Position numbers and translations under genes: made by a program. The notes beneath the pieces were generated by a model. That model was not told where the DNA came from. It did no database searches and saw only the letters and a list, made by a program, of their open reading frames with translations. From positions 677,595-741,594 of the forward strand of contig OZ246416.1 of assembly GCA_965231095.1 (NCBI GenBank): 64,000 bases of DNA, given 5' to 3'. Positions 2,057 through 33,161 of the stretch are shown piece after piece (within the stretch, counting starts at the first letter, position 1; each line of letters starts with the position of its first letter). Origin of the DNA: an uncultured Gammaproteobacteria bacterium (GTDB taxonomy: Bacteria > Patescibacteriota > Patescibacteriia > XYB2-FULL-38-15).

Positions 2057-3160
2057 ATGGCCACAAAAATTACTAAAATTTCCGAAAAACAAATCCAAAA
2101 ATTAATTGAAACTTCCCGCGAAGTGATCCGCGACTCGGCGCTTGAAAACGGCGCGATTGTCGCGACCAATACCGACCAAACTTATTATCCCCGCGAAGCG
2201 GCAAATTATCGTTGGGTTTGGCCGCGTGACGCGAGCTATATCTGCGTGGCGGCGGAAATTTTAAAAATTCCCATTCAAGAACCGTTTTTTGACTGGCTCT
2301 ATTCCCGCCCGAAAGATTTTAAAAAGGAAAAACTCCTTTTTGCCAATTATTCCACCAACGGCCAGTTCGGCAGCATGGGTCGCATTCTTCAAATTGACCA
2401 AGCCGGTACGGTTCTCTGGGCAATTTATGAACATTTTAAAAATGATCTGAAGAAAGCGCAAAAATATAAAGATTTGATTGAACAACTTTCTGATGGAATA
2501 GCGGCCAATTGGAATAAAAATTTTTTCCGCCCGCACACGGTTGATCTTTGGGAAGAACCGCACCGCCAAACTTCCACCACCATAGAAAATAATTTTACTT
2601 ACTCGCTCGCGGCCTCGGCCCGCGGCCTTCTTTTAGCCTGCGAAATGCTCCCTAATTGCCTTTGGAAGGAAGCCGCCTCGCAGATGATTGAAAAAATAAA
2701 TGACGCTTATAGCCCGGCCGAAAAATATTTTTTGCGCAGCAAGGGGAAAATTTCCGACAAAAATGTTGACGCCTCGCTTCTCGGTCTCGTTTGGCCGTTT
2801 CAAATCTTTGAGGCTAAAGACGAGAGAATGGCAAATACCATCGCCAAGATGGAAGAAAAAATTGTTATGGACGGCGGCGTGCATCGTTTTGAACAAGATT
2901 ATTTTGACGGGGAGGGCTCGGCCCAAGAAGGCGGCGGCGCTTGGCCGCTATTAAATTTTTGGATGGCCGTTTATTTCGCGAAAAAAGGCGACCGCGAAAA
3001 AGCTCTATCGTATTATAATTGGGTTTTGGAGCGGATTGGAAAATTTAAAGGTTTTATTCCCGAACAAATTTTTGATGATTTCCGCGTCGGCGTTTATCCC
3101 CTTGTCTGGTCCCACGCTATGTTTATTATCGCTTCGCGCGAGCTGGGTTTTATTAAGTAA
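2057..3160 (+). CDS. Glycoside hydrolase family 15 (glucoamylase/glucodextranase-like)
   Basis: WVWPRDASY and LWEE motifs typical of GH15 (alpha/alpha)6 barrel; adjacent to glgA. Confidence 0.7.
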   Translation: MATKITKISEKQIQKLIETSREVIRDSALENGAIVATNTDQTYYPREAANYRWVWPRDASYICVAAEILKIPIQEPFFDWLYSRPKDFKKEKLLFANYSTNGQFGSMGRILQIDQAGTVLWAIYEHFKNDLKKAQKYKDLIEQLSDGIAANWNKNFFRPHTVDLWEEPHRQTSTTIENNFTYSLAASARGLLLACEMLPNCLWKEAASQMIEKINDAYSPAEKYFLRSKGKISDKNVDASLLGLVWPFQIFEAKDERMANTIAKMEEKIVMDGGVHRFEQDYFDGEGSAQEGGGAWPLLNFWMAVYFAKKGDREKALSYYNWVLERIGKFKGFIPEQIFDDFRVGVYPLVWSHAMFIIASRELGFIK

Positions 3161-3172
3161 AGATTAACAATC

Positions 3173-4660
3173 ATGAAGAAAAAGTTAAAAATCGCCGTAG
3201 TCGCCGCGGAGGTCGCGCCTTTTTCCAAAACCGGCGGGCTGGCTGATGTCACGGGCTCTTTGCCCAAGAGTTTCCAAGAAATGGGAAATGATATCGTTGT
3301 GATTACGCCGTTCTACGGAAAACTAATTGATCCCCAAAAACATTCCCTGATTCTTTTAGAGAAAAATTTTTTTATTCGGCTCGGCAAAAACCAAAAGATA
3401 AAAATCTCTCTCTGGCGGGGAGAAATTGAAAAAAATCTGCCGGTTTATTTTATTGAATACAAAAAATATTTTTCCAAAAAACAATCTCTCTACGGCTCGA
3501 CTCATGAAAATTCCCGTTTCGCCTTTTTTAACTACGCTGTTTTGGAAATTTTGAAAAAAATAAATTTCGCCGCCGACATTATTCATTGCCACGACTGGCA
3601 CGCCGGCCTTATTCCGTATTTGTTAAAAAAAGATCCGCTCTACGCGAAAGATGATTTTTTCAAAAAAGCCGCCGCGGTTTTTACCATTCATAATTTAGCT
3701 TTCCAAATGGGGGGAAATTGGTGGAATCTCCCCGCGGAAAAAAGAGATTCCGGAATAGAGCCATTGCCAAAAATCCACACCAAGGCAATGGAAAAAATTA
3801 ATTTTGCCAAACGGGCGATTCTTTTTTCTGACGCGCTAAATACTGTTTCAGAAAAATATGCCGAAGAACTTTTAACTCCGGAATTTGGCCAGGGTTTGGA
3901 AAAAAACTTGCAACATCGCCAAAAAGACTTCTTTGGAATTATAAACGGCATTGACTATTCCGTTTTTAATCCAACCATAGATAAAAATATTTCCGTAAAT
4001 TACGACTGGAATTCTCTCCGTTGCAAGAAAAAAAATAAAGTTTATCTGCAAAAAAAATTAAAGTTGGAACAAAATGTAAATATCCCCCTGATCGGATTGG
4101 CCAGCCGGCTTGCCGAACAGAAGGGATATAATCTTGTCATCGAAAGCCTCGACACTCTTTTAAAACTTCCTTTGCAAATCGTTATCATCGCGAGCGGCGG
4201 CAAAGAAGCAAAAGAATACTCGGATACTTTCAAAAAAATTGCCAAAAAATATCCAAAAAAATTCGCTTTTGTCACTCCTTACACCGAAGAAGAAGCTTCG
4301 AGGGTTTATGCCGGTTCGGACATGCTTTTGATGCCCTCGCGTTTTGAACCATGTGGACTTTCTCCGCTCATCAGTTTGCGTTACGGTTCCATTCCAATTG
4401 TCCACGAAACCGGTGGCCTCGCGGAAACCATCACTGATTTTGATCCCAAAACTGGAAAGGGCAATGGCTTCGTTTTTGAAAATTATACCCGCGAAGAATT
4501 TTTAGCCGCGCTCGTCCGGGCCTTGGAAAATTTTAAATATGAAAAAGTTTGGGAACATTTAGTTTGGCGGGCAATGAAACAATCTTTCTCTTGGGAAATT
4601 CCCGCGGAAAAGTATATCGCACTTTTTAAAAAGGCAATGAGAAATAAGTCGAAAAAATAA
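3173..4660 (+). CDS. glgA: Glycogen synthase (ADP/UDP-glucose alpha-glucan glucosyltransferase, GT5)
   Basis: N-terminal EVAPFSKTGGLADV (KTGGL) motif, 495 aa, GT-B C-terminal signature. Confidence 0.9.
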   Translation: MKKKLKIAVVAAEVAPFSKTGGLADVTGSLPKSFQEMGNDIVVITPFYGKLIDPQKHSLILLEKNFFIRLGKNQKIKISLWRGEIEKNLPVYFIEYKKYFSKKQSLYGSTHENSRFAFFNYAVLEILKKINFAADIIHCHDWHAGLIPYLLKKDPLYAKDDFFKKAAAVFTIHNLAFQMGGNWWNLPAEKRDSGIEPLPKIHTKAMEKINFAKRAILFSDALNTVSEKYAEELLTPEFGQGLEKNLQHRQKDFFGIINGIDYSVFNPTIDKNISVNYDWNSLRCKKKNKVYLQKKLKLEQNVNIPLIGLASRLAEQKGYNLVIESLDTLLKLPLQIVIIASGGKEAKEYSDTFKKIAKKYPKKFAFVTPYTEEEASRVYAGSDMLLMPSRFEPCGLSPLISLRYGSIPIVHETGGLAETITDFDPKTGKGNGFVFENYTREEFLAALVRALENFKYEKVWEHLVWRAMKQSFSWEIPAEKYIALFKKAMRNKSKK

Positions 4661-4700: not shown

Positions 4701-5924
4701 ATGTATTGGGCCAACCTCCTCCACATTTACCAGCCGCCCGGCCAAAAGAAAGAAATTACCAAAAAAGTTGCCGCCGAAAGTTATTGGCGGATTGTTGATA
4801 TTTTAAAAAAACATCCTGAGGTGAAAATTAATTTAAACATCAACGCCTCGCTTACTGAACAGCTACCGGCCGCGGGTTTAAAAAAATTAATTGACGAAAT
4901 TACCGCCCTCGCTCGACGCGGCCAGATTGAATTTACCGGCAGCGCCAAATACCATGTCATCTTGGCGCTTTTGCCCGAATCGGAAATTATCCGCCAAATT
5001 AAACTTAACGACAAAACAAATAAAAAATTCTTCGGCGCGCTCTGGCAACCAACCGGATTTTTTATTCCCGAACTTTGCTACAGCGAAAAAGTAGCGCGCA
5101 CCGTGAAAAAACTCGGATTTAAATGGATTGTTTTAGACGAAGTCGCTTACAACGGAAAATTTAATAAAATAAAATTTGATAAACTTTATAAAATCAAGAA
5201 CGTCGGCCTGCCGGTTTTTTTCCGAAACACAAAAATTTCTAATCTTTTTTTCACGGCTGAAGCAAAAACCACGGCTGACTTTTTTAAAATTTTAAAAGAA
5301 GACGGACGCTCGGAAAAATATCTGCCTACGGCCATGGACGGCGAAAATCTTGGCCATCACCAGAAAGAAATGGACAAACTTTACGCCGATCTTTTGGATA
5401 CTGGAAAATTCGAGGCGATAACTTTTTCCGATTTACTTAAAATATATAAGTCATCACAAGAAATCGCCCCCGCTCCTTCCAGCTGGTCGTCGCGAGAAGA
5501 AGACATAAGAAGAAAAGTCTACTACCCGCTTTGGAAAAATCCAAAAAATGAAATCCATCGGCTACAGTGGCAGCTGACAAACCTCGCCATTAAAATCGTC
5601 AATAAAAACTCGGCCGATACAAATTTTAAAAAATCCCGCGCGCTTCTTGACCGGGCGTTACACTCCGATCAATACTGGTGGGCCTCCGCCAACCCCTGGT
5701 GGTCGGTGGAAATTATAGAAAATGGAGGCAACATGTTGCTTAATTCTTTAAAATCTTTAAAAACCTTATCTCCAAAAATTTTACAAAAAGCAGTTTTACT
5801 TAATAAAAAAATCTCGGCCACGGCGCATAATTGGCAAGATACCGGCCGAGCGAAAAAAATAAAAGAAGCGTATTTAGCCGGAGAACCCTACGAGCGTTAC
5901 TTTGCCGGCAAAGTGATAAAATAG
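4701..5924 (+). CDS. Glycoside hydrolase family 57 protein (alpha-glucan branching enzyme/amylase-like), paralog 1
   Basis: MYWANLLHIYQPP start, TAMDGENLGHH and ALHSDQYWWAS motifs resembling GH57 regions IV/V; tandem with paralog. Confidence 0.65.
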   Translation: MYWANLLHIYQPPGQKKEITKKVAAESYWRIVDILKKHPEVKINLNINASLTEQLPAAGLKKLIDEITALARRGQIEFTGSAKYHVILALLPESEIIRQIKLNDKTNKKFFGALWQPTGFFIPELCYSEKVARTVKKLGFKWIVLDEVAYNGKFNKIKFDKLYKIKNVGLPVFFRNTKISNLFFTAEAKTTADFFKILKEDGRSEKYLPTAMDGENLGHHQKEMDKLYADLLDTGKFEAITFSDLLKIYKSSQEIAPAPSSWSSREEDIRRKVYYPLWKNPKNEIHRLQWQLTNLAIKIVNKNSADTNFKKSRALLDRALHSDQYWWASANPWWSVEIIENGGNMLLNSLKSLKTLSPKILQKAVLLNKKISATAHNWQDTGRAKKIKEAYLAGEPYERYFAGKVIK

Positions 5925-9542: not shown

Positions 9543-10121
9543 CTATCCCGTCTTCAACCGACCGAGATAGAAGATCTTCGGTTCTCTCCAAAAATCTTCT
9601 CGCGCCGCCCCGATGTTCAAGGTCCTCCCCCTTAGTAACGGATAGTACAGGCCGAACTCCTCCTTGGAGATCGGCGTACCCAGGGCAACCACGGGAATTT
9701 CCCACGAAAAAACTGAGTCCCAGCGGGCGAGGCGCAGAAGATCAGAGAGCGTTCCAGGAAGAAGGTTCATGCCCCTGAGGCGCGCTTCGATTTCCAGGAC
9801 GGTCCAATGGCCCGGAACATTCTGCACTCTAAGTCGTTCAAGCTTCTCGCCTCGCTCGTCCGTTTCCTCCGGCTTCCAGGGGAAGTCTTCCTCTCGAAGA
9901 CCATCCGCGAGCGCCAGATTGCTCGTTATGAGCGCTCCACTAAACGTAGGTATGTCGCATGGCCTGAGGCTGTTGAACCAAACCGCGTCCAAAACCCGCC
10001 AGGGATCTTCGAGGAAGAACTGGAAAAGGTCGTGGTGCATCTGCCCCACCCCGACCATCTCGTGAAACTTTTCCATCTGCTCCATGCTCGGCTTTACGAA
10101 CTGCCCGGTTCCTCTTATCAT
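9543..10121 (-). CDS. Hypothetical protein encoded in GC-rich island 1 (192 aa from the AAGGAG-preceded ATG; longer TTG-initiated frame to 10247 possible)
   Basis: ~58% GC versus ~40% surroundings; SD AAGGAG 8 nt upstream of ATG at 10119-10121; consensus promoter TTGACA-17-TAAAAT at ~10238-10205 on minus strand. Confidence 0.5.
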   Translation of the reverse strand: MIRGTGQFVKPSMEQMEKFHEMVGVGQMHHDLFQFFLEDPWRVLDAVWFNSLRPCDIPTFSGALITSNLALADGLREEDFPWKPEETDERGEKLERLRVQNVPGHWTVLEIEARLRGMNLLPGTLSDLLRLARWDSVFSWEIPVVALGTPISKEEFGLYYPLLRGRTLNIGAAREDFWREPKIFYLGRLKTG

Positions 10122-10587
10122 CGTTGCCGCTCCTTTGACCCGCCAGTAGTCAGACCGCGACAGAGCCCCATGCTCCGACTTCGGCTGATACGCTGGGCGA
10201 GACAGTTGAATTTTAATCTCCTTCTTGTCCGCTGTCAACCGCCGCAAAGGGGTTTGCCAAAAGGCCTATTTTTTGTTAAAATAAATACAATTTATGAGCT
10301 TAATCGCCAATTACTAAGCAATGTCCTTAGCCCACAAAACCCAATCCCCGCAGAACTGGAGAGAAAGACCTTCTCGCCGGATTTTTAATAAATTAAAACT
10401 TGATAAAGTTAAAGAATTTTCCGCGCGGCTTCTGGGTTCTATAAAAAATAAATGGTCAAAAAATCTGTCGGCTGCTTCTCCAAATTCATCCACGGCGCGA
10501 CCAACTAATGCTCCTCTTACTCCACCCCTCCCGCCTTCCGCCGACCCAAAAAACTTTTTTTCTAAAATATTTCAAACTATTATTTTT

Positions 10588-13575: not shown

Positions 13576-13606
13576 TTATTTTTAAAGATTTAGAATTCGG
13601 AAAATT

Positions 13607-14995
13607 ATGAAATACATAACAGTAAAAAATATCACCAAGAATAATCTGAAACGATTTTCAGTTAAAATACCATTGCAAAAACTGGTCGCCATTGTTGGTC
13701 CGAGCGGAAGCGGCAAGTCTACGTTGGTTCATGAAGTGTTATATAACAATTCAATCAAAAAAGAGTGGGATATAAAAAATCTACCGAAAATTGTTGATAT
13801 TCTTGAACAAAAAGTAATTCTTCCAAGGGATTCAAAGTTGAGTCTAGGTGAATTTAACTTTGATAAATTAAAAAAGAAATTATCCGCAATTCATAAGGAA
13901 GATTTGTTGATTGTTGATGAACCCTGTGCTGGATTTTGTGAGAAAGAGCGAAAGACAATTTTGAAAATGTTAAAAGATAAAGTTAAGCAGGGATATTCAA
14001 TAATTGCAGTTGAACATAATAAGGAAATTATTGCTAATGCTGATTATGTAATTGAGCTTGGTCCCGGGGCTGGACGATATGGCGGAAAATTGATTTTTGA
14101 GGGAAATCTAAATGAATTTAAAAAGTCTGGCACAATTACGGCTGAACATGTTTTTAAGGCAAACAAAGACGCGGTAAAGCAAGGAACTTTTGAGAAAGGC
14201 AAAGAAGTTACAATTTCAAAAATATCTGCTGGAAATTTTAAAAATTACAGTTTTACATTTCCGCTCATAAGTATAGTTTGTTTAACTGGCTGTTCTGGTA
14301 GCGGAAAATCAACCTTATTGGATGTCGCTTATCGTGCTTTATTTAAAGGAAAAAATGCTTGGAAAATTAGATTAAAAACGGTTAACGTTAATGGAAAAAC
14401 TAATGTACGTAGGTCGTTTATTGTTCCACAATCTTCGATTGGAGATCATCCATCAAGCACGCTCGCGACCTATGCAAAAGTTTGGGATAACATAAGGGAG
14501 ATTTTTGCGAATGAAAAACTGGCAAAGCAGTTAAGATTAACGAAATCAGATTTCATTATTTCAAAAAGTATTTTGGAATCAAAAAGTGATTTTTCAAAGG
14601 ATGTTTTAAAAGTTTGCTATCAAAGGAAAAATATCAAAGAAGTTGCAAATCTTACGATTGATGAGGCATTAGAAATATTTGAAACTGACACTCTAATAGT
14701 GAGAAAATTGAAATTTTTACAGGAAGTAGGCTTAGGCTATTTGGTGCTTGGACAAAAATCAGGTTCTTTAAGTGGTGGAGAAGCTCAGCGAGTAAGAGTT
14801 GCAAAAATTCTTTCAAAAAAACTTGGCGATAGGTCTGTCTATATTTTTGATACTCCAACCAGAGGATTACATCTCAAAGATATTCCAGTACTAATAGATG
14901 TTTTTAGAAAAATTATAGACAAAAATAATACAATTTTAATAGCAGATAACAGAGAGGAAGTATTTCATTATTGTGACTATCGGATAAATCTTTAA
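13607..14995 (+). CDS. Minimal UvrA-like tandem ABC ATPase (two NBDs, no zinc-finger/UvrB-binding/DNA-binding insertions)
   Basis: Walker A GPSGSGKSTLVHEVLY and CLTGCSGSGKSTLLDVAY (UvrA-style), degenerate signature LSLGE, Walker B LLIVDEP...VEHN...GPGAG; signature LSGGEAQRVRVA and VYIFDTPTRGLHLKD (UvrA C-terminus-like, Glu to Thr); ~31% GC. Confidence 0.7.
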   Translation: MKYITVKNITKNNLKRFSVKIPLQKLVAIVGPSGSGKSTLVHEVLYNNSIKKEWDIKNLPKIVDILEQKVILPRDSKLSLGEFNFDKLKKKLSAIHKEDLLIVDEPCAGFCEKERKTILKMLKDKVKQGYSIIAVEHNKEIIANADYVIELGPGAGRYGGKLIFEGNLNEFKKSGTITAEHVFKANKDAVKQGTFEKGKEVTISKISAGNFKNYSFTFPLISIVCLTGCSGSGKSTLLDVAYRALFKGKNAWKIRLKTVNVNGKTNVRRSFIVPQSSIGDHPSSTLATYAKVWDNIREIFANEKLAKQLRLTKSDFIISKSILESKSDFSKDVLKVCYQRKNIKEVANLTIDEALEIFETDTLIVRKLKFLQEVGLGYLVLGQKSGSLSGGEAQRVRVAKILSKKLGDRSVYIFDTPTRGLHLKDIPVLIDVFRKIIDKNNTILIADNREEVFHYCDYRINL

Positions 14996-15001
14996 AAATG
15001 C

Positions 15002-15153
15002 ATTTGCCCCGATTAAATCTTTTGCCTTTAGGTAAAAGCCGAAAAGAATTTTTTAATACATCAGCTAACAACGAGTATCTGGTTTCGACTTTTTACAAAA
15101 GTCTCCACCCAAATGCTACGCACTTCAGATACTCGTAACGTTAGGCGAAATGA
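15002..15153 (+). repeat. Right inverted-repeat arm of the UvrA-like cassette fused to leader repeat copy B (hairpin stem 15072-15081/15127-15136, nested hairpin gacttttgtaaaaagtc) ending ...aacgttaggcgaaATG
   Basis: Matches 13514-13575 in inverted orientation and copy A (946-1067) in flanks and stem register. Confidence 0.65.
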
Positions 15154-15815
15154 TTCATTTATCACCCACCATGTCAAACACTATCCTTCAAGAAAAAGAC
15201 AGCGTGATTTACGCCAATTGTATGGCGGAATTGAAGGATCGTCTAAACAAAATAGAGTCTTCGCTGGATAAAAATTTTTCATTAGATATTTTTTTACTAG
15301 AATTTATTTGTCTACAATTCAGAAAAATATGCGAACTATTCGCTTTCGGAACTTTGATAGCTAGTAAAGATCTTTACAGACAAGTCAGAAAAGATTTCAG
15401 TAATGATTGGAACTTTGCTAGAATATTAACAACTGTAGAAAAAATTAATCCACGATACTTTCCAAAACCATTAAAATATGAGGGCAACAAAGCCTTTGCC
15501 GTCGTAACAAATGACTTTCTACTTCAAAAAAATATTATAGATATTTACGATGAATGTTCCGACATGATAAATGCCCAAAATCATTTCAAAGATTTGAAAA
15601 ATTTTTATCCAAATAGTGATGAGAAAAGAGATATTTGGCGTAAAAAATTCACAGAATGGAAAGAAAAATTTATTAAATTATTTGACTGCCATACAATTGG
15701 CATAAAGACTGATTTATATACAAAAGTTTTTATCACCTTCATGTATATAAATAATCCGAGCAAAGATATCAATGTTATCGCAGCGGATGTCATTCCAAAG
15801 CCAAAAGATAAATAA
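15150..15815 (+). CDS. Hypothetical protein, AT-rich, partner of UvrA-like ATPase (alternative start 15171)
   Basis: 221-aa ORF directly after repeat copy B; no recognisable motif; composition matches upstream AT-rich gene. Confidence 0.45.
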   Translation: MIHLSPTMSNTILQEKDSVIYANCMAELKDRLNKIESSLDKNFSLDIFLLEFICLQFRKICELFAFGTLIASKDLYRQVRKDFSNDWNFARILTTVEKINPRYFPKPLKYEGNKAFAVVTNDFLLQKNIIDIYDECSDMINAQNHFKDLKNFYPNSDEKRDIWRKKFTEWKEKFIKLFDCHTIGIKTDLYTKVFITFMYINNPSKDINVIAADVIPKPKDK

Positions 15816-17274: not shown

Positions 17275-18423
17275 TTACTTTTTTATCGGCATGACGATAT
17301 AGAGATAATCAGATTTTTCTGTTTTTGACCGGAGAAGGCACGGGCTTTCGCTGGAAGTTAATTCCAGCGCCACCTCTTCCACCTCCATGGCGCCGAGCCC
17401 GTCTAAAAGATATCTGTAATTTAAAGTTATTTCATTTTCTTTTCCCTCAACTTCCGCTTCAAGTTTTGCTGTGTTTTCGCCAAACTGTGAGTTCGCCGAG
17501 GATAAAACCAACTCGCCTGATTTTTCTTTTCCCGGTTTAAAACCAAAAGTGACATCAAAAATTCCGGGCTTGGCGAAAAGACTGGCGGTTTTTACAACCT
17601 TAATCAGTTCGTTGCGATTAAAGCCGGCCTTGGTTTCATAACTCGCCGGAATAATTTGTTTGTAATCGGGATACTGGCCGTCAATTACCCTCGAGACAAG
17701 ATCCACCCCGTTTAGGGAAAACATAATTTGATTTTCCGCCAGATATATTTTCACCAAATTTGGCGCATCGGGATCATCGCTCTCTCGAAAAACGGATAAA
17801 ATTCTCAAGACTTCTTGCATGGTTCTGGCCGGGACAATCACGTCGCGGGAATTTTCGTTTTCTTTTCCGGTGAGGGCCAGGGTTTTTTCCGCCAAGCGGT
17901 AACTGTCGGTCGCGGCGACCACAACTTTCATCCCGGCTCCGTCAAAATGCATTAAAATGCCGCTGATTTCCGGCCGGATTTCGTTGGTGGACGTCGCGAA
18001 AACCACCTGGGTCACTGCCTCACGAAATTTTCCCGCGTCCAGGCTGTACCCGGCGGTTTTTTCCACTTCGGGGATCAATGGGAATTCGCTCGTTGCCGCG
18101 CCGCGAAGCCGCGTCTCGTAATTTTTACATTTTATTTCCAGGGTTTGGTCTTGCAAATCCAAATCAATTTTGTCGTTTGGCAGGGAGCCAACGTAATCGG
18201 CAAAAAGTTTTGCCGGCAGAGTTATTGCTCCGTCAGCTTCAATTTTCCCCCGCACCTCGCACTTAATTCCAATCTCAAGATTTGTCGCGATAAGCGTAAT
18301 TACTCCGCCCTCGGCGCGAAATAAAATATTATTTAAAATGGGCAGATTAACGTTTTTGCTCGCGATGTGGCTTGAAATTAAAAGCCCCCGATTTAAATTT
18401 TCTTGAGTACAGGAGAGTTTCAT
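17275..18423 (-). CDS. dnaN: DNA polymerase III beta sliding clamp
   Basis: 382 aa, MKLSCTQENLNRGLLISSHIASKNVNLPILNNILF N-terminus typical of DnaN; downstream of dnaA. Confidence 0.9.
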   Translation of the reverse strand: MKLSCTQENLNRGLLISSHIASKNVNLPILNNILFRAEGGVITLIATNLEIGIKCEVRGKIEADGAITLPAKLFADYVGSLPNDKIDLDLQDQTLEIKCKNYETRLRGAATSEFPLIPEVEKTAGYSLDAGKFREAVTQVVFATSTNEIRPEISGILMHFDGAGMKVVVAATDSYRLAEKTLALTGKENENSRDVIVPARTMQEVLRILSVFRESDDPDAPNLVKIYLAENQIMFSLNGVDLVSRVIDGQYPDYKQIIPASYETKAGFNRNELIKVVKTASLFAKPGIFDVTFGFKPGKEKSGELVLSSANSQFGENTAKLEAEVEGKENEITLNYRYLLDGLGAMEVEEVALELTSSESPCLLRSKTEKSDYLYIVMPIKK

Positions 18424-18712: not shown

Positions 18713-20074
18713 TTAGTTGTACAATCTTTGTTTTATTTGTTCTATTTCTTGTTTCAGCCGGTCGCTTGTTTCCACCTCGCGAGTGATTTTATCAAAGGCG
18801 TGCATGGCGGTTGTATGATCGCGGCCGCCGAGCTCCTGGCCGATCGCCGGGTATGAACTTTCTAATTCTTTTCTCATCAAATACATCACAATTTGTCTCG
18901 GAAAAGCCAGGCGTTTCTCGCGGGATTGTCCCAAAAGATCGTCAAGCCTTAAATCATAAAATTCCGCGACGGTATTTATCAGTTGTTTTGGTGTGGCGGA
19001 TTTTCTTCCGGAAACGACGTGGCTTATAAGAATTTTTTTTACTAAATCAAGCGTTAGCGGAACATGTTGGAACTGTTCGTAAGCAATAATTTTGTTTAGG
19101 GCGCCCTCAAGTTCTCTGATGTTGTTTTGGATAATGAGCGCAATGTGATCAACAATGTTTTGATCTAAAATAAGCCCCTTTTCAGCACATTTTGCTTTTA
19201 AAATAGCAATGCGCGTTTCATAATCCGGTTGGGAAATATCTGCAATCATCCCCCACTCAAAGCGGGAGATAAGCCGTTGTTCAAGCGCCGGAATCGCTTT
19301 GGGCGGTCGATCGGAAGACATAACAATTTGTTTGTCGGCTTGATGTAGGTCGTTAAAAGTATGAAAAAATTCTTGCTGGGTTCCGTCTTTCGCGGCCATG
19401 AACTGCACGTCATCAATTAAAAGAAGATCGGGGGTGCGGTAAGTTTGTTTAAATTTTTCCGTGGTTCGGGAGCGGATGGCCTGGACATAATCATTGGTAA
19501 ATTTTTCGCTCGTGGTATAAAGAACTTTTTTGCTCGGGTCGGCTTCTAAAATCGCGTGGCCGATTCCTTGGAGAAGATGCGTCTTCCCCAGCCCCACGCC
19601 GCCATAAATAAATAAAGGATTGTAAGTGCTCTTCCCGGGATTTTTGGAAACAGCTTGCGCCGCGGCATGAGCCAATTCATTATTTTTTCCGACAACGAAA
19701 CTCGGGAAAGTATATTTTGGATTTAATCCGAAGCGATTGCTCGGGACTTCGGCCGAGGCTGTTGGTTTTTCGGTTGGTTCGTGCGTCGCGGCGGAAGGAA
19801 TTTCCACCCGTTGTGTTTGAGGCTTTACTGCCTCCACGCGATAGGCAACTTCCTTGATGTGGCAGCCGACGATTTTTTGTAAAGTTTTTAAAATGGATTG
19901 GTGATATTTATTTTCCAACCACGCTTTGGTAAAAGTATTTGGCACGCCGACCGTAATCTTTTCTCCATCAATAAGAGAAATAGCGGTGTTTTTAAACCAA
20001 GTGGTAAAGTTGGCTTTTGTGAGAGAGAGTTCAAGCTCGCCCAGAACCGCCTGCCAAAGTTGAAGGTTTGTCAT
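18713..20074 (-). CDS. dnaA: Chromosomal replication initiator protein DnaA
   Basis: AAA+ Walker A GVGLGKTHLL, sensor motifs, C-terminal HTH; 453 aa. Confidence 0.95.
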   Translation of the reverse strand: MTNLQLWQAVLGELELSLTKANFTTWFKNTAISLIDGEKITVGVPNTFTKAWLENKYHQSILKTLQKIVGCHIKEVAYRVEAVKPQTQRVEIPSAATHEPTEKPTASAEVPSNRFGLNPKYTFPSFVVGKNNELAHAAAQAVSKNPGKSTYNPLFIYGGVGLGKTHLLQGIGHAILEADPSKKVLYTTSEKFTNDYVQAIRSRTTEKFKQTYRTPDLLLIDDVQFMAAKDGTQQEFFHTFNDLHQADKQIVMSSDRPPKAIPALEQRLISRFEWGMIADISQPDYETRIAILKAKCAEKGLILDQNIVDHIALIIQNNIRELEGALNKIIAYEQFQHVPLTLDLVKKILISHVVSGRKSATPKQLINTVAEFYDLRLDDLLGQSREKRLAFPRQIVMYLMRKELESSYPAIGQELGGRDHTTAMHAFDKITREVETSDRLKQEIEQIKQRLYN

Positions 20075-22790: not shown

Positions 22791-22955
22791 TTTGATTGGG
22801 GGAAAAATTGATTAGGTTTTTCTTTGATAAGTTTAAAGAAAAACTGTTTTTTTGTCAACAAATTTAGAGAAATCCACAAAATATCCACAGGGGGAGATTT
22901 TTAATAAAAAAGCCCGGCGATTTGTAGTCGCAGGGCGGGGAGGCCGGCAGGGGCG

Positions 22956-23168
22956 TCAGCTGCAAAGAATCTGGTGGCAGCCGTCTTCGCCCGGATCGTT
23001 GGGACAGCCGCAGCGCGGGCAAAGATGGGCTTCCGGCGATTGCTCCTCTTCGGGCAGACCGTCGGGAGGCAGGTATGTGCCGGGCAGACCGTAGAGAAGC
23101 CATTCGCCGACTTCTTCGTCCGTCACCCCAGAGGGAGATGGTTTTTGCAGCACTCTCTTGCTTGCCAT
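22956..23168 (-). CDS. Small zinc-ribbon protein (CPRCGCPNDPGEDGCHQ), GC-rich island 2
   Basis: 70-aa ORF with AGGAGG SD 5 nt upstream; ~63% GC. Confidence 0.45.
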   Translation of the reverse strand: MASKRVLQKPSPSGVTDEEVGEWLLYGLPGTYLPPDGLPEEEQSPEAHLCPRCGCPNDPGEDGCHQILCS

Positions 23169-23297
23169 GGTTTCCTCCTTTCCGTGGCATACAGATTAAT
23201 ATACTCGGGAAGAGGTTGTTTGTCAAGGTTATAAATAAAAAACAGGGCGGGCGATGCATTGGCTTCCGAAGAAACCTTGCATCACCCGCCCGAGCTG

Positions 23298-23738
23298 TCA
23301 AGCCGCCACCGTTGAGGCGGCCTCGCTGTCCTCCTTCTTGGGGAGAAAGGTCGTGGTGGCCCGCTGGCCATCCCCTTTCGCCCCCCTCGCCGCGTCGAGC
23401 ACCAGGCTCACGGCCGTGAGCCGCCGTCCGACCGTCTCGGTATACGCCCGTTCCGCGGGGGTCCACTTTTCCGGCTCGCCGCCGAGCAAGAGCTCGACCT
23501 CTTCTCGGAGAGTGGCGAACTCCGCCTCGCGCCTCGCCCTGATCGTCTGGATATCGGTGTCCGTGAGCTTGGCGGCCCACACCGCGAACCAGTCGACCGG
23601 ACCCTTGCCGCGCGTGACCTGGGCCGCGAGACCCTGGGTCACCGCCAACTCGTAGATGTCCACGATTGGCTCGGCCTTCGGCTTGCCTCCGAGTACCCCT
23701 CCCAGCCACTGTCCGAGCTCCGTGTCTTTTCCGCTCAT
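23298..23738 (-). CDS. Hypothetical protein, GC-rich island 2
   Basis: 146-aa ORF, GGAGGAGGAG SD; consensus promoter TTGACA-17-TATAAT on minus strand at ~23846-23818 overlapping palindrome tttgtcaa-gagctt-ttgacaaa. Confidence 0.5.
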   Translation of the reverse strand: MSGKDTELGQWLGGVLGGKPKAEPIVDIYELAVTQGLAAQVTRGKGPVDWFAVWAAKLTDTDIQTIRARREAEFATLREEVELLLGGEPEKWTPAERAYTETVGRRLTAVSLVLDAARGAKGDGQRATTTFLPKKEDSEAASTVAA

Positions 23739-23817
23739 TTTCTCCTCCTCCCGTCTGGCGGAAAGCTACTTTTCCGCACAATTTGCCAATCATGTAGCTT
23801 TTTATTATATAATAAGG

Positions 23818-23848
23818 TTAAGATTTTGTCAAGAGCTTTTGACAAAAA
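23818..23848 (-). promoter_or_regulatory. Consensus sigma70 promoter (TTGACA-17-TATAAT) with overlapping 8-6-8 palindromic operator-like site driving island 2 genes
   Basis: Read from reverse complement of 23790-23860. Confidence 0.6.
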
Positions 23849-23904
23849 TGGTTAAAAATAGCTTAAATTAGAGAAAAAAGAGGTGTTTTTATCCAAAAAC
23901 AAAA

Positions 23905-23930
23905 AACGGCCCTTCGGCCGTTAAATTTTT
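23905..23930. terminator. Perfect hairpin aacggcc-cttc-ggccgtt with flanking T/A runs
   Basis: Downstream of minus-strand gene ending 23943. Confidence 0.55.
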
Positions 23931-23942
23931 GTAAATTTATGT

Positions 23943-24257
23943 TTAATTAAGTCCGGAAATTTTCTTTTTTTTCACTTCTTCTTTAAATGCTCCTGCGTCT
24001 TGCTCCGCCTCGGCGCGGGCTTCATTTAAAATTTTAGTAATCATTTCGCGCGGTAGAATATCAGAGTTATCCAGGGAGTCCAAATATCTTTCGTACGCTT
24101 CATGTGCTTTTTCCGTCTCAATGTCGTCGCCCCTTCCAATTTGTGAAAGGTAATAGTTAAACCAAAAATCTCCGGCCAGCGTCCTTAATTTTTTTTCCGC
24201 CGCTTCTCTTTCGGGATCATTTTCTTGGTCAGGATTTTTTGGTTCCCTTTCCGCCAT
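23943..24257 (-). CDS. Hypothetical acidic protein
   Basis: 104-aa ORF, upstream of clpP on same strand. Confidence 0.4.
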   Translation of the reverse strand: MAEREPKNPDQENDPEREAAEKKLRTLAGDFWFNYYLSQIGRGDDIETEKAHEAYERYLDSLDNSDILPREMITKILNEARAEAEQDAGAFKEEVKKKKISGLN

Positions 24258-24261
24258 AAAT

Positions 24262-24870
24262 TTATTTTTTAATAATTTTATCTACGATTCCGTACTTCAA
24301 CGCTTCCTCCGCCGTCATAAAATAGTCGCGGTCTGTGTCTTTATCAATTTTGGCGATCGGCTGACCGGTGTGTTTGGCCAAAATTTCATTCAAGCGATCT
24401 TTAATTCTCAAAATATGTTCCGCTCGAATTTTTATATCAACGGCTTGGCCTTCGGCGCCGCCCATCACCTGATGAATCATTACTTCCGCGTTTGGCAACA
24501 AAAATCTTTTTCCTTTCGCGCCCGCCGCCAAAAGTGTCGCGGCCATTGACGCGGCCATGCCAACGCAAATTGTGGAAACATCTGGCTTGATGTATTGCAT
24601 GGTGTCGTAAATCGCAAGACCCGCCGTGACTGATCCGCCGGGGCTATTGATATACAATTTAATATCTTTATCTTTGTCTTGGCTTTCTAAAAATAAAAGT
24701 TGGGCAATGATCGTGTTGGCCGCGCCATCATCAATTTGGTCGCCCAAAAAGACAATCCGGTCTTTCAAGAGTCGGGAATAAATATCATAAGCCCGCTCAC
24801 CGTAAGTTGATTTTTCAATCACGGTCGGGATTAAATATTGTGAATTCGGTTCGTTATTTTTTGGAGTCAT
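24262..24870 (-). CDS. clpP: ATP-dependent Clp protease proteolytic subunit
   Basis: [19 protein letters not shown], catalytic GMAASMAA Ser region, MIHQ His. Confidence 0.9.
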
Positions 24871-30955: not shown

Positions 30956-31222
30956 CTATCGCTTCGCCGCGGGAATCTGCCGCAGCACAGCTTCGGTGCA
31001 GGGAACATTGGCCAAGGCTGGCCCTCCTGTCCCACCGGTGCCGAAGTAGGCGAAACAGAGGTCGGTTCTCGGATCCTTCGCGTAGACCATGTTCCCGACC
31101 CAGTAGTTGACCTCCCCGCCGAGTTGCTCGGACACTGACACTGGCGGGTCATAGCAGCTCGCGCAGAATGTGAAAACGCCGAGCAGAAGAGCTAACGCCA
31201 AAAGCGACCAAAACTTCTTCAT
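30956..31222 (-). CDS. Small secreted lipoprotein-like protein, GC-rich island 3
   Basis: MKKFWSLLALALLLGVFTFCASC signal/lipobox; GGAGGA SD before ATG 31220-31222; ~58% GC; own promoter TTGACT-17-TACATT (minus). Confidence 0.5.
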   Translation of the reverse strand: MKKFWSLLALALLLGVFTFCASCYDPPVSVSEQLGGEVNYWVGNMVYAKDPRTDLCFAYFGTGGTGGPALANVPCTEAVLRQIPAAKR

Positions 31223-31344
31223 CTCTCTTCCTCCTCGTCCAGGGAAGATGATTTTCACCCAGACAAACCAATGTAACACGATCTTACATACAAGTCAAGG
31301 TTAGTGTAGGAAAAATGATTGTGGAAAAACTGGGGAAAAGCCCC

Positions 31345-31624: not shown

Positions 31625-33161
<1,537 letters not shown>

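Follow-up and report, generated by a model that had tools for sequence, protein, structure and literature searches.

A GC-rich pair of small orphan genes inherited with its neighbours at the clpP-tig site of a Patescibacteria clade

Stabilised bacterial messenger RNAs (mRNAs), ClpXP substrates, type II toxin-antitoxin pairs, acquired islets, and small stand-alone zinc ribbons are the described systems closest to a pair of small genes lying between clpP and tig in an uncultured patescibacterium. The pair, called A and B here, was studied in a stretch of 64,000 nucleotides (NCBI GenBank assembly GCA_965231095.1, contig OZ246416.1, positions 677,595 to 741,594 of the forward strand), referred to as the window, with coordinates counted from its first letter. 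A previous sequence-only reading had presented the pair as a small insertion of foreign origin, rich in guanine and cytosine (GC). Comparison with relatives shows that A and B are, instead, old, clade-specific orphan small-protein genes, vertically inherited with their neighbours at the clpP-tig site, about 3 kb from dnaA.

Features known from stabilised mRNAs include a 5' hairpin, a strong Shine-Dalgarno (SD) site, and a stable 3' hairpin (hbs, PMC5737220; review PMC3997798). On the Bacillus subtilis hbs mRNA, a strong SD with bound ribosomes is reported to block RNase J1 (PMC5737220). As in this group (B. subtilis hbs, aprE leader, cry3A STAB-SD; Escherichia coli ompA 5' stem-loop), gene A has a stem-loop at the 5' end, a nearby strong SD, and a strong 3' hairpin, and it is a gene in the style of those for small abundant proteins. 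It has, nevertheless, no sequence relation to them, its open reading frame (ORF) is GC-rich and U-poor throughout in an AT-rich, SD-poor genome, and its stability is predicted from sequence.

For ssrA-tagged and natural ClpXP substrates (the E. coli C-motif 1 class), terminal Ala-Ala is the critical ClpX determinant (PMC10862746; PMC7652416). Like these proteins, A has a disordered tail, which ends in V/T/I/A-Ala-Ala despite its variable sequence, and its gene lies near clpP. Unlike the ssrA tag, the tail is encoded in the genome and not added by transfer-messenger RNA (tmRNA). Other differences are the residue at -3, often T or S (weak in E. coli), one subclade ending in LAETG, and the absence of clpX from the window; the likeness is known here from sequence.

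Like A and B, type II toxin-antitoxin pairs consist of two small genes side by side, with a palindrome covering the promoter, one partner bearing a protease degron (putative in the present case), and rapid evolution. A and B differ from them in not being co-transcribed, in having no toxin or antitoxin domain (Pfam, NCBIfam, PADLOC), and in being fixed at one chromosomal site clade-wide, with no mobile copies. Acquired islets and ORFan genes also have atypical GC, codon, and SD usage, no homologues elsewhere, and a place in a variable intergenic hot spot, whereas A and B are vertical, with neighbour-like synonymous divergence (dS), and their composition is unameliorated clade-wide and confined to the coding sequence. 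Finally, relatives of B have two CPxCG knuckles, 8-12 residues apart and C-terminal, as do small stand-alone zinc ribbons (Pfam DZR, Zn_ribbon_1/3). They differ from these in that all hidden Markov model (HMM) scores are below curated thresholds, and in the window B, the second knuckle is degenerate (CHxxxC) and the N-terminal domain is lost.

Inheritance of the pair at the clpP-tig site

By its nearest tig relatives, the window, part of an 886-kb contig, belongs to a clade of Falkowbacteria-like Patescibacteria. The closest relatives, two Logan contigs of one population (L001 and L002) with about 89% identical housekeeping DNA, have the same two genes with the same junctions. In this comparison, A has a dS of 0.39 and B one of 0.54, the values for tig, rnpA, L34, and the metallophosphatase gene being 0.37-0.48. 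As the values for A and B are similar to those of the flanks, the pair has diverged together with its neighbours.

More distant homologues of A, 24-50% identical, were found between clpP and tig by tblastn and look-ups in L003, L004, L005/L034, L007, L008, L027, L032, L035, L036, and L037. Altogether, A/B homologues are present at this site in at least 12 independent assemblies of the clade, in the order rbfA-DHH-clpP-A-B-tig-metallophosphatase-(rpmH)-rnpA-yidD-dnaA. All relatives with a tig identity of at least 65% have A and/or B there, and two subfamilies of A coincide with two tig clades. In distant Patescibacteria, with a tig identity of at most 55%, another gene lies upstream of tig, neither A nor B is present, and the synteny differs.

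Outside the clade, no homologue of A was found among 5.8 billion and 1.84 billion proteins, in which the family itself counts 6 clusters and about 12 true representatives (50% identity clusters), respectively. Viral contigs, phage records, and plasmids likewise yielded none, and a first scan of genome contigs with A gave no match. The borders of the pair have no tRNA nearby, no integrase ORF, and no clear target duplication. A and B can be described as two new small-protein families restricted to the clade.

These results bear directly on the proposal, made in the sequence-only reading, of a recent horizontal insertion from a high-GC organism, such as the host of an episymbiont. High GC, including at third codon positions (GC3), foreign-looking codon usage, and strong SD sites would all be expected of such an event. 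Nevertheless, every clade member sampled has the pair at this site, A and B do not differ from the flanks in dS, the A subfamilies match the tig clades, no homologue lies outside the clade among the 1.84 billion representatives, and the GC-rich part consists of the ORFs only. Recent transfer from a high-GC host is, therefore, rejected as very improbable. Contamination or chimerism, for which the junctions had been singled out, is rejected as well, the same junctions recurring in independent assemblies. Homologues native to low-GC relatives had been named as the observation that would speak against a foreign origin; they are indeed natively embedded there, but their GC does not match that of their surroundings and is still high.

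Composition and coding evidence

The GC content, earlier given as about 63% for 22905-23860, is 59.3% over that interval and 63.4% from the SD of A to the terminator of B, in a window at 43.8%. Gene A reaches 67.8% and gene B 61.0%. In gene A, GC at the three codon positions is 0.67/0.51/0.84, a 3-periodicity found in a single frame only; GC3 is thus 0.84 for A, and it is 0.63 for B, versus 0.38-0.47 in the neighbouring genes. The codon choice of A is inverted with respect to native genes, with GAG, AAG, CTC, and GTG replacing GAA, AAA, TTR/CTT, and GTT, and its coding strand contains only 12% T. This GC-richness ends at the ORF borders, as promoters and untranslated regions, at 13-43% GC, are AT-rich like the native genome.

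In every genome of the clade, the GC3 of A is 0.72-0.85 and that of tig 0.33-0.47. The high value persists across subfamilies that are only 24-30% identical, at which distance synonymous sites must be saturated. Judged across the subfamilies, the odd composition of A is thus a maintained property rather than a fading relic. Polarised synonymous changes between strong (S) and weak (W) bases, with S-to-W : W-to-S counts of 8:1 for A and 17:43 for tig, were set aside as uninformative on GC3 decay, because parsimony is biased by the composition of the outgroup.

Two other islands of the window, island 1 (9543-10121) and island 3 (30956-31279), both on the minus strand, are in the same style as A and B, with a GC3 of 0.67-0.68 and AGGAG/GGAGG-type SD sites. 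Island 1 has a TTGACA-17-TAAAAT promoter at 10238. The proteins they encode bear no relation to A and B, and PADLOC gave no match for them. A distant patescibacterium without A and B, L013, has another GC-rich orphan ORF upstream of tig (L013:4436-4693, 85 aa, GC3 0.69), which hints at a wider occurrence of small GC-rich orphans in the phylum.

With respect to the closest relative, A has two indels, of 9 nt and 3 nt, both in-frame. The ratio of nonsynonymous to synonymous divergence (dN/dS) reaches 0.60 in A and 0.22 in B, compared with 0.10-0.20 in tig, L34, rnpA, and the metallophosphatase gene. B is under purifying selection, while the core of A has a dN/dS of 0.74 (confidence interval 0.41-1.39). 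It could be argued that the ORFs are spurious and that the segment is a structured non-coding RNA, an assembly chimera, or a contaminant, since several frames of GC-rich DNA tend to be open over a long distance (one alternative frame here has 309 aa) and the A transcript is strongly structured. The 309-aa frame is, however, a by-product of GC-richness, and the periodicity in one frame, the in-frame indels, and the dN/dS values of both genes contradict spurious ORFs. Profile-level conservation and the confidently modelled helical core of A speak for a real protein. Rfam covariance models gave no gathering-score match at the locus, only chance-level E-values of at least 0.3, which speaks against a non-coding RNA, and identical junctions speak against a chimera or contaminant, as they recur in more than 10 assemblies that were made independently in different projects. 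This explanation is, thus, extremely improbable.

The content of the clpP-tig site varies between genomes. In L006, A is replaced by an unrelated 78-aa gene co-transcribed with B, and L007 and L008 have one extra gene. L008 holds a 5.7-kb GC-rich island at the site (L008:227-6001), with a Csx20-like CRISPR-associated protein (3020-3376, PADLOC E 5e-30), an ORF (5369-5674, minus strand) read as a putative TraR/DksA-like C4 zinc finger, and about 1.3 kb without a clear ORF. An insertion of about 130 nt, resembling a miniature inverted-repeat transposable element (MITE), lies between the gene B promoter, P2, and the SD of gene B in L001 (805-945) and L002 (1-115), whereas the window does not have it. 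Its terminal inverted repeats measure 21 bp, a duplication of 7 bp (GTATGCC) accompanies it, and its RNA is strongly structured (-47 kcal/mol, z -5.3).

This variability keeps another explanation alive, namely that A and B are cargo, since domesticated, of an ancient mobile or defence island, and that the ancestor of the clade acquired them a single time, at a hot spot between clpP and tig. They would then be conflict genes (toxin-antitoxin-like, abortive-infection, or anti-phage/anti-defence), whose fast evolution reflects an arms race and whose GC comes from an unsampled GC-rich gene pool. Such an origin would account for the atypical composition and SD usage, the fast evolution of A, the changing site content (L006, L007/L008, and the MITE in L001/L002), and the further GC-rich, SD-led orphans of islands 1 and 3. 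On the other hand, PADLOC, PHROG, and Pfam gave no match for A and B, their borders have no integrase, tRNA, or clear target duplication, and no phage, plasmid, or viral homologues were found. They are also transcribed separately, unlike type II toxin-antitoxin pairs, their regulatory DNA is AT-rich in the native style, and ancient acquisition alone leaves the undecayed GC3 unexplained. We consider domesticated cargo rather unlikely.

Transcription units and their signals

Table 1. Features of the clpP-tig interval in window coordinates.
Feature	Coordinates	Strand	Remarks
clpP	24262-24870		two complete expression units lie 3' of clpP and the 104-aa ORF, reading the minus strand
104-aa ORF between clpP and gene A	23943-24257	-	native composition
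Hairpin terminator of the 104-aa ORF	23905-23922		
A/T-rich upstream block (GTTATT..AAAAACA..TTAAGCYATTTTTAAC)	23848..23900	-	in a 13-locus alignment, blocks from the upstream terminator to the -35 are conserved
Inverted repeat TTTTGTCAA-N6-TTGACAAAA	23824..23847	-	right arm is the -35 hexamer; candidate operator
Promoter P1, TTGACA-17-TATAAT	23804..23832	-	12/12 consensus
Leader hairpin at the 5' end, 11 bp, GGNN loop	23773..23798	-	begins at the predicted transcription start
SD site of gene A, GGGAGGAGGAG	23742..23752	-	6 nt before ATG
Gene A, 146 aa	23298..23738	-	acidic (pI 5.1), five-helix, disordered tail at residues 124-146
Terminator of gene A, 20-bp hairpin, UUCG loop, then U6	23237..23291	-	-38.7 kcal/mol, z -6.9
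Promoter P2 of gene B, TTGACA-17-TATATT	23198..23226	-	11/12 match; conserved in relatives
SD site of gene B, AAGGAGG	23174..23180	-	5 nt before ATG
Gene B, 70 aa	22956..23168	-	very acidic (pI 4.3), putative C-terminal zinc ribbon
Terminator of gene B, hairpin (22912-22936), CUACAAA loop, then U6	22906..22936	-	conserved in all relatives

The sequence-only reading had placed a two-gene cassette, with a single promoter and a terminator after the second gene, between the clpP-proximal gene and tig. The position, the terminator, and the two GC-rich ORFs are as described, but the genes do not form one operon. The promoter P2 had been missed and, since it lies together with a strong terminator between A and B, these are two monocistronic genes. 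Judged by their signals, A and B are two self-contained transcription units, each with its own promoter, SD, and terminator (Table 1). The terminator of A is much stronger than that of B, after which come the tig promoter and tig. The 104-aa ORF, carried by only some relatives (L004, L006, and L027, besides the window), is another variable small orphan at the clpP-tig site.

P1, correctly recognised as a perfect consensus promoter, is the sole 12/12 match in the 64 kb, where the expected mean for matches of at least 11/12 is 1.9; the coordinates given for it (23818-23848) cover the -35 and the palindrome and miss the -10. The 8-6-8 palindrome over the -35, TTTGTCAA-N6-TTGACAAA, is exact at 23825-23846 and, when searched for elsewhere, unique within the window. 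TGT-N11-TTGACAAAA is invariant in 13 loci, both TGT and TTGACAAAA being unchanged, and arms of at least 6 nt with the same 6-nt spacer are present in 9 of the 13. The -10 and two upstream A/T blocks are conserved in these loci too, and the upstream block is a candidate UP element or set of extra regulator sites. The inverted repeat is plausibly an operator, in agreement with one half of the earlier suggestion of an autoregulator site. Readings of the inverted repeat and of the tail of A as a CtsR box, a LexA box, or a beta-clamp motif were dropped, as the patterns depart from the respective definitions (direct versus inverted repeat; QLxLF).

The leader of gene A, about 60 nt long, starts with the 11-bp hairpin at the expected +1, 6 nt past the -10. 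Across 11 sequences, 93% of the cells in this hairpin are paired, versus 16-60% for slid controls. In L035-L037, a different hairpin (GUUGC...GCAAC) stands at the same leader position, which argues that conservation concerns having some hairpin at the 5' end. The long stem of the gene A terminator is also found in L003, L005, and L007, where the bases that have changed still pair. Taken as a whole, the A transcript is more stably folded than its dinucleotide shuffles (z -3.9).

GGAGG-type SD sites had been reported for both genes and are present on both. An SD-like motif of any kind precedes native genes in only 4 of 48 crude gene calls in the window. The 3' end of the 16S rRNA, CACCTCCTTTCT (window about 33150-33159), contains the anti-SD, which part of the Parcubacteria is reported to have lost (PMC9297842). 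The SD-led genes of the window are the GC-rich orphans. Altogether, the pair has maximal expression signals, which are probably repressible.

Several observations concern the surrounding DNA. A 12-nt near-repeat with one mismatch (AATTTAGAGAAA / AAATTAGAGAAA, at 22861-22872 and 23865-23876) brackets the pair. One copy lies upstream of P1 and the other upstream of the tig promoter, and the two promoter regions are 78% alike over 23 nt; the near-repeat could be the footprint of a promoter duplication or due to chance. Just upstream of the tig -35, two DnaA-box-like 9-mers form a direct repeat, TGTGGATAT-TT-TGTGGATTT (22870-22889), conserved in all relatives, and dnaA (18713-20074) and dnaN (17275-18423), both on the minus strand, lie 3-5 kb away. 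The window has 24 such 9-mers versus 11.8 expected, a real enrichment that reflects proximity to oriC and not the A/B pair. Finally, a low-GC stretch (13601-15800, 30-34%), which encodes an ABC/AAA-type ATPase (13607-14995) and contains an ORF of 221 aa without annotation, adjoins the minimum of the cumulative GC skew, and is an outlier in the direction opposite to A and B.

Proteins A and B and the proposed role of the pair

The AlphaFold 2 (AF2) model of A has a mean predicted local distance difference test (pLDDT) score of 71, with about 90 for the five-helix core and below 50 for the tail. Family members all have 130-165 aa and keep W, L, E, and R positions in the alignment; no match to A was found in Pfam, PHROG, PADLOC, NCBIfam, PDB, or BFVD. 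The tail, variable in length and sequence, yet keeps a (D/E)-E-T-x-F-L-P-like (TxFLP) motif, which is TTFLP in the window, where the C-terminus is STVAA. Among 16 representatives, nine tails end in Ala-Ala and two in Val-Ala, and one subclade ends in LAETG; only one in 152 background ORFs ends in Ala-Ala. At position -3, where a hydrophobic residue is favourable, some tails have V, I, or A and others T or S. The Ala-Ala at the end of the disordered tail is as expected of an ssrA-like degron, for which a C-terminal Ala-Ala with a free carboxylate on an accessible tail is characteristic. As clpP lies one or two genes upstream of A in all genomes, we infer from this and the terminal Ala-Ala that a protease-controlled, short-lived A would be the most economical reading. 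The tmRNA, sought for comparison of its tag, was not found in the window or in the relatives' loci.

B is present in every relative. Its putative C-terminal zinc ribbon reads CPRCG-x10-CHxxxC in the window and CPxCGYxDP-x5-7-CPxCG in relatives, which have a longer N-terminal domain in addition; the window B is a shortened, derived form of their protein. Zinc-ribbon HMMs scored the longer relatives at 10-17 bits, below the cut-offs of 25-27 bits, and did not match the window B, for which Pfam, PADLOC, and PHROG gave no match. A resemblance to zinc-binding anti-sigma (ZAS) factors, raised earlier as a possibility, was not borne out. B has no HxxxCxxC, as it ends in CHQILCS with no CxxC following, its relatives have no His, and the neighbours are clpP and tig and not an extracytoplasmic function (ECF) sigma factor gene.

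The reading proposed here is that of a clade-specific, vertically inherited pair, in which the A and B units would give a repressible, very high output of long-lived mRNA. The inverted repeat would be the operator of a putative dimeric repressor. The 5' hairpin and a bound ribosome would block decay that depends on the 5' end, and the U-poor body and the 20-bp 3' hairpin would resist endonucleases and 3'-exonucleases. Selection on the A mRNA may also be what keeps its GC3 high. A would be a helical regulator- or adaptor-like protein, and its disordered tail, with TxFLP and a usually ssrA-like Ala-Ala end, would make it a docking partner or a substrate of a ClpXP-type protease and, hence, short-lived. 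The acidic zinc-ribbon protein B would be its functional partner. A stress or cell-cycle switch and a conflict system are possibilities for the role of the pair.

Several points weigh against this proposal. At the RNA level, folding of the A coding sequence relative to synonymous-codon shuffles gave z from -0.4 to -4.1, not separated from clpP and tig (-2.2 and -2.3), so that selection on mRNA structure is unproven, and covariation in the leader hairpin is weak over the 11 sequences, consisting mostly of G-U pairs and not exceeding that of shuffles. Neither the AF2 model nor structure and family searches revealed a recognisable DNA-binding fold in A; autoregulation by A, the second half of the earlier suggestion, is thus not indicated. 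The fast evolution of A (dN/dS 0.6-0.74) fits conflict, but fits weak constraint as well. As regards proteolysis, the tail ends in TG in 4 of the 16 representatives and in II in one; in E. coli, Ala-Ala is required but does not suffice by itself, and a small polar residue at -3 (T/S) is disfavoured (PMC10862746). No clpX was found in the 64-kb window and, as the site takes up other DNA too (L008), the pair could lie close to clpP by coincidence.

The descriptive part, i.e., a clade-restricted vertical pair with strong expression signals and a maintained composition, is well supported. The whole proposal, with repressible high-output units on stabilised mRNAs, a Clp-controlled A, and B as its partner, appears about evenly balanced between right and wrong. 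Its functional core, a stabilised mRNA for a short-lived, Clp-controlled regulator with a zinc-ribbon partner, is tentative and has roughly one chance in three. A bolder extension, which we regard as quite unlikely, is that AT-rich, SD-poor Patescibacteria keep, by selection, a class of 'armoured' genes with a GC-rich, U-poor sequence, a 5' hairpin as a cap, and dependence on an SD, of which islands 1-3 would be examples (the A/B pair being island 2). A would then be a very highly expressed competing substrate, timer, or adaptor of the neighbouring Clp protease, setting the state of global proteolysis or of the cell cycle near oriC, with B as partner.

Compositional outliers are routinely taken as evidence of recent horizontal transfer, whereas A, with a GC3 of 0.84 versus about 0.42, is old, vertical, and unameliorated. 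An anomaly limited to coding sequence points to a force acting on synonymous sites, which may be mRNA-level selection, biased conversion, or an unseen reservoir, and which programs that predict islands leave out of account. The pair also defines two uncharacterised families with a testable layout, made of a candidate operator, a leader hairpin, an SD in an SD-poor genome, and a putative degron encoded close to clpP, in an uncultured phylum that is poorly understood.

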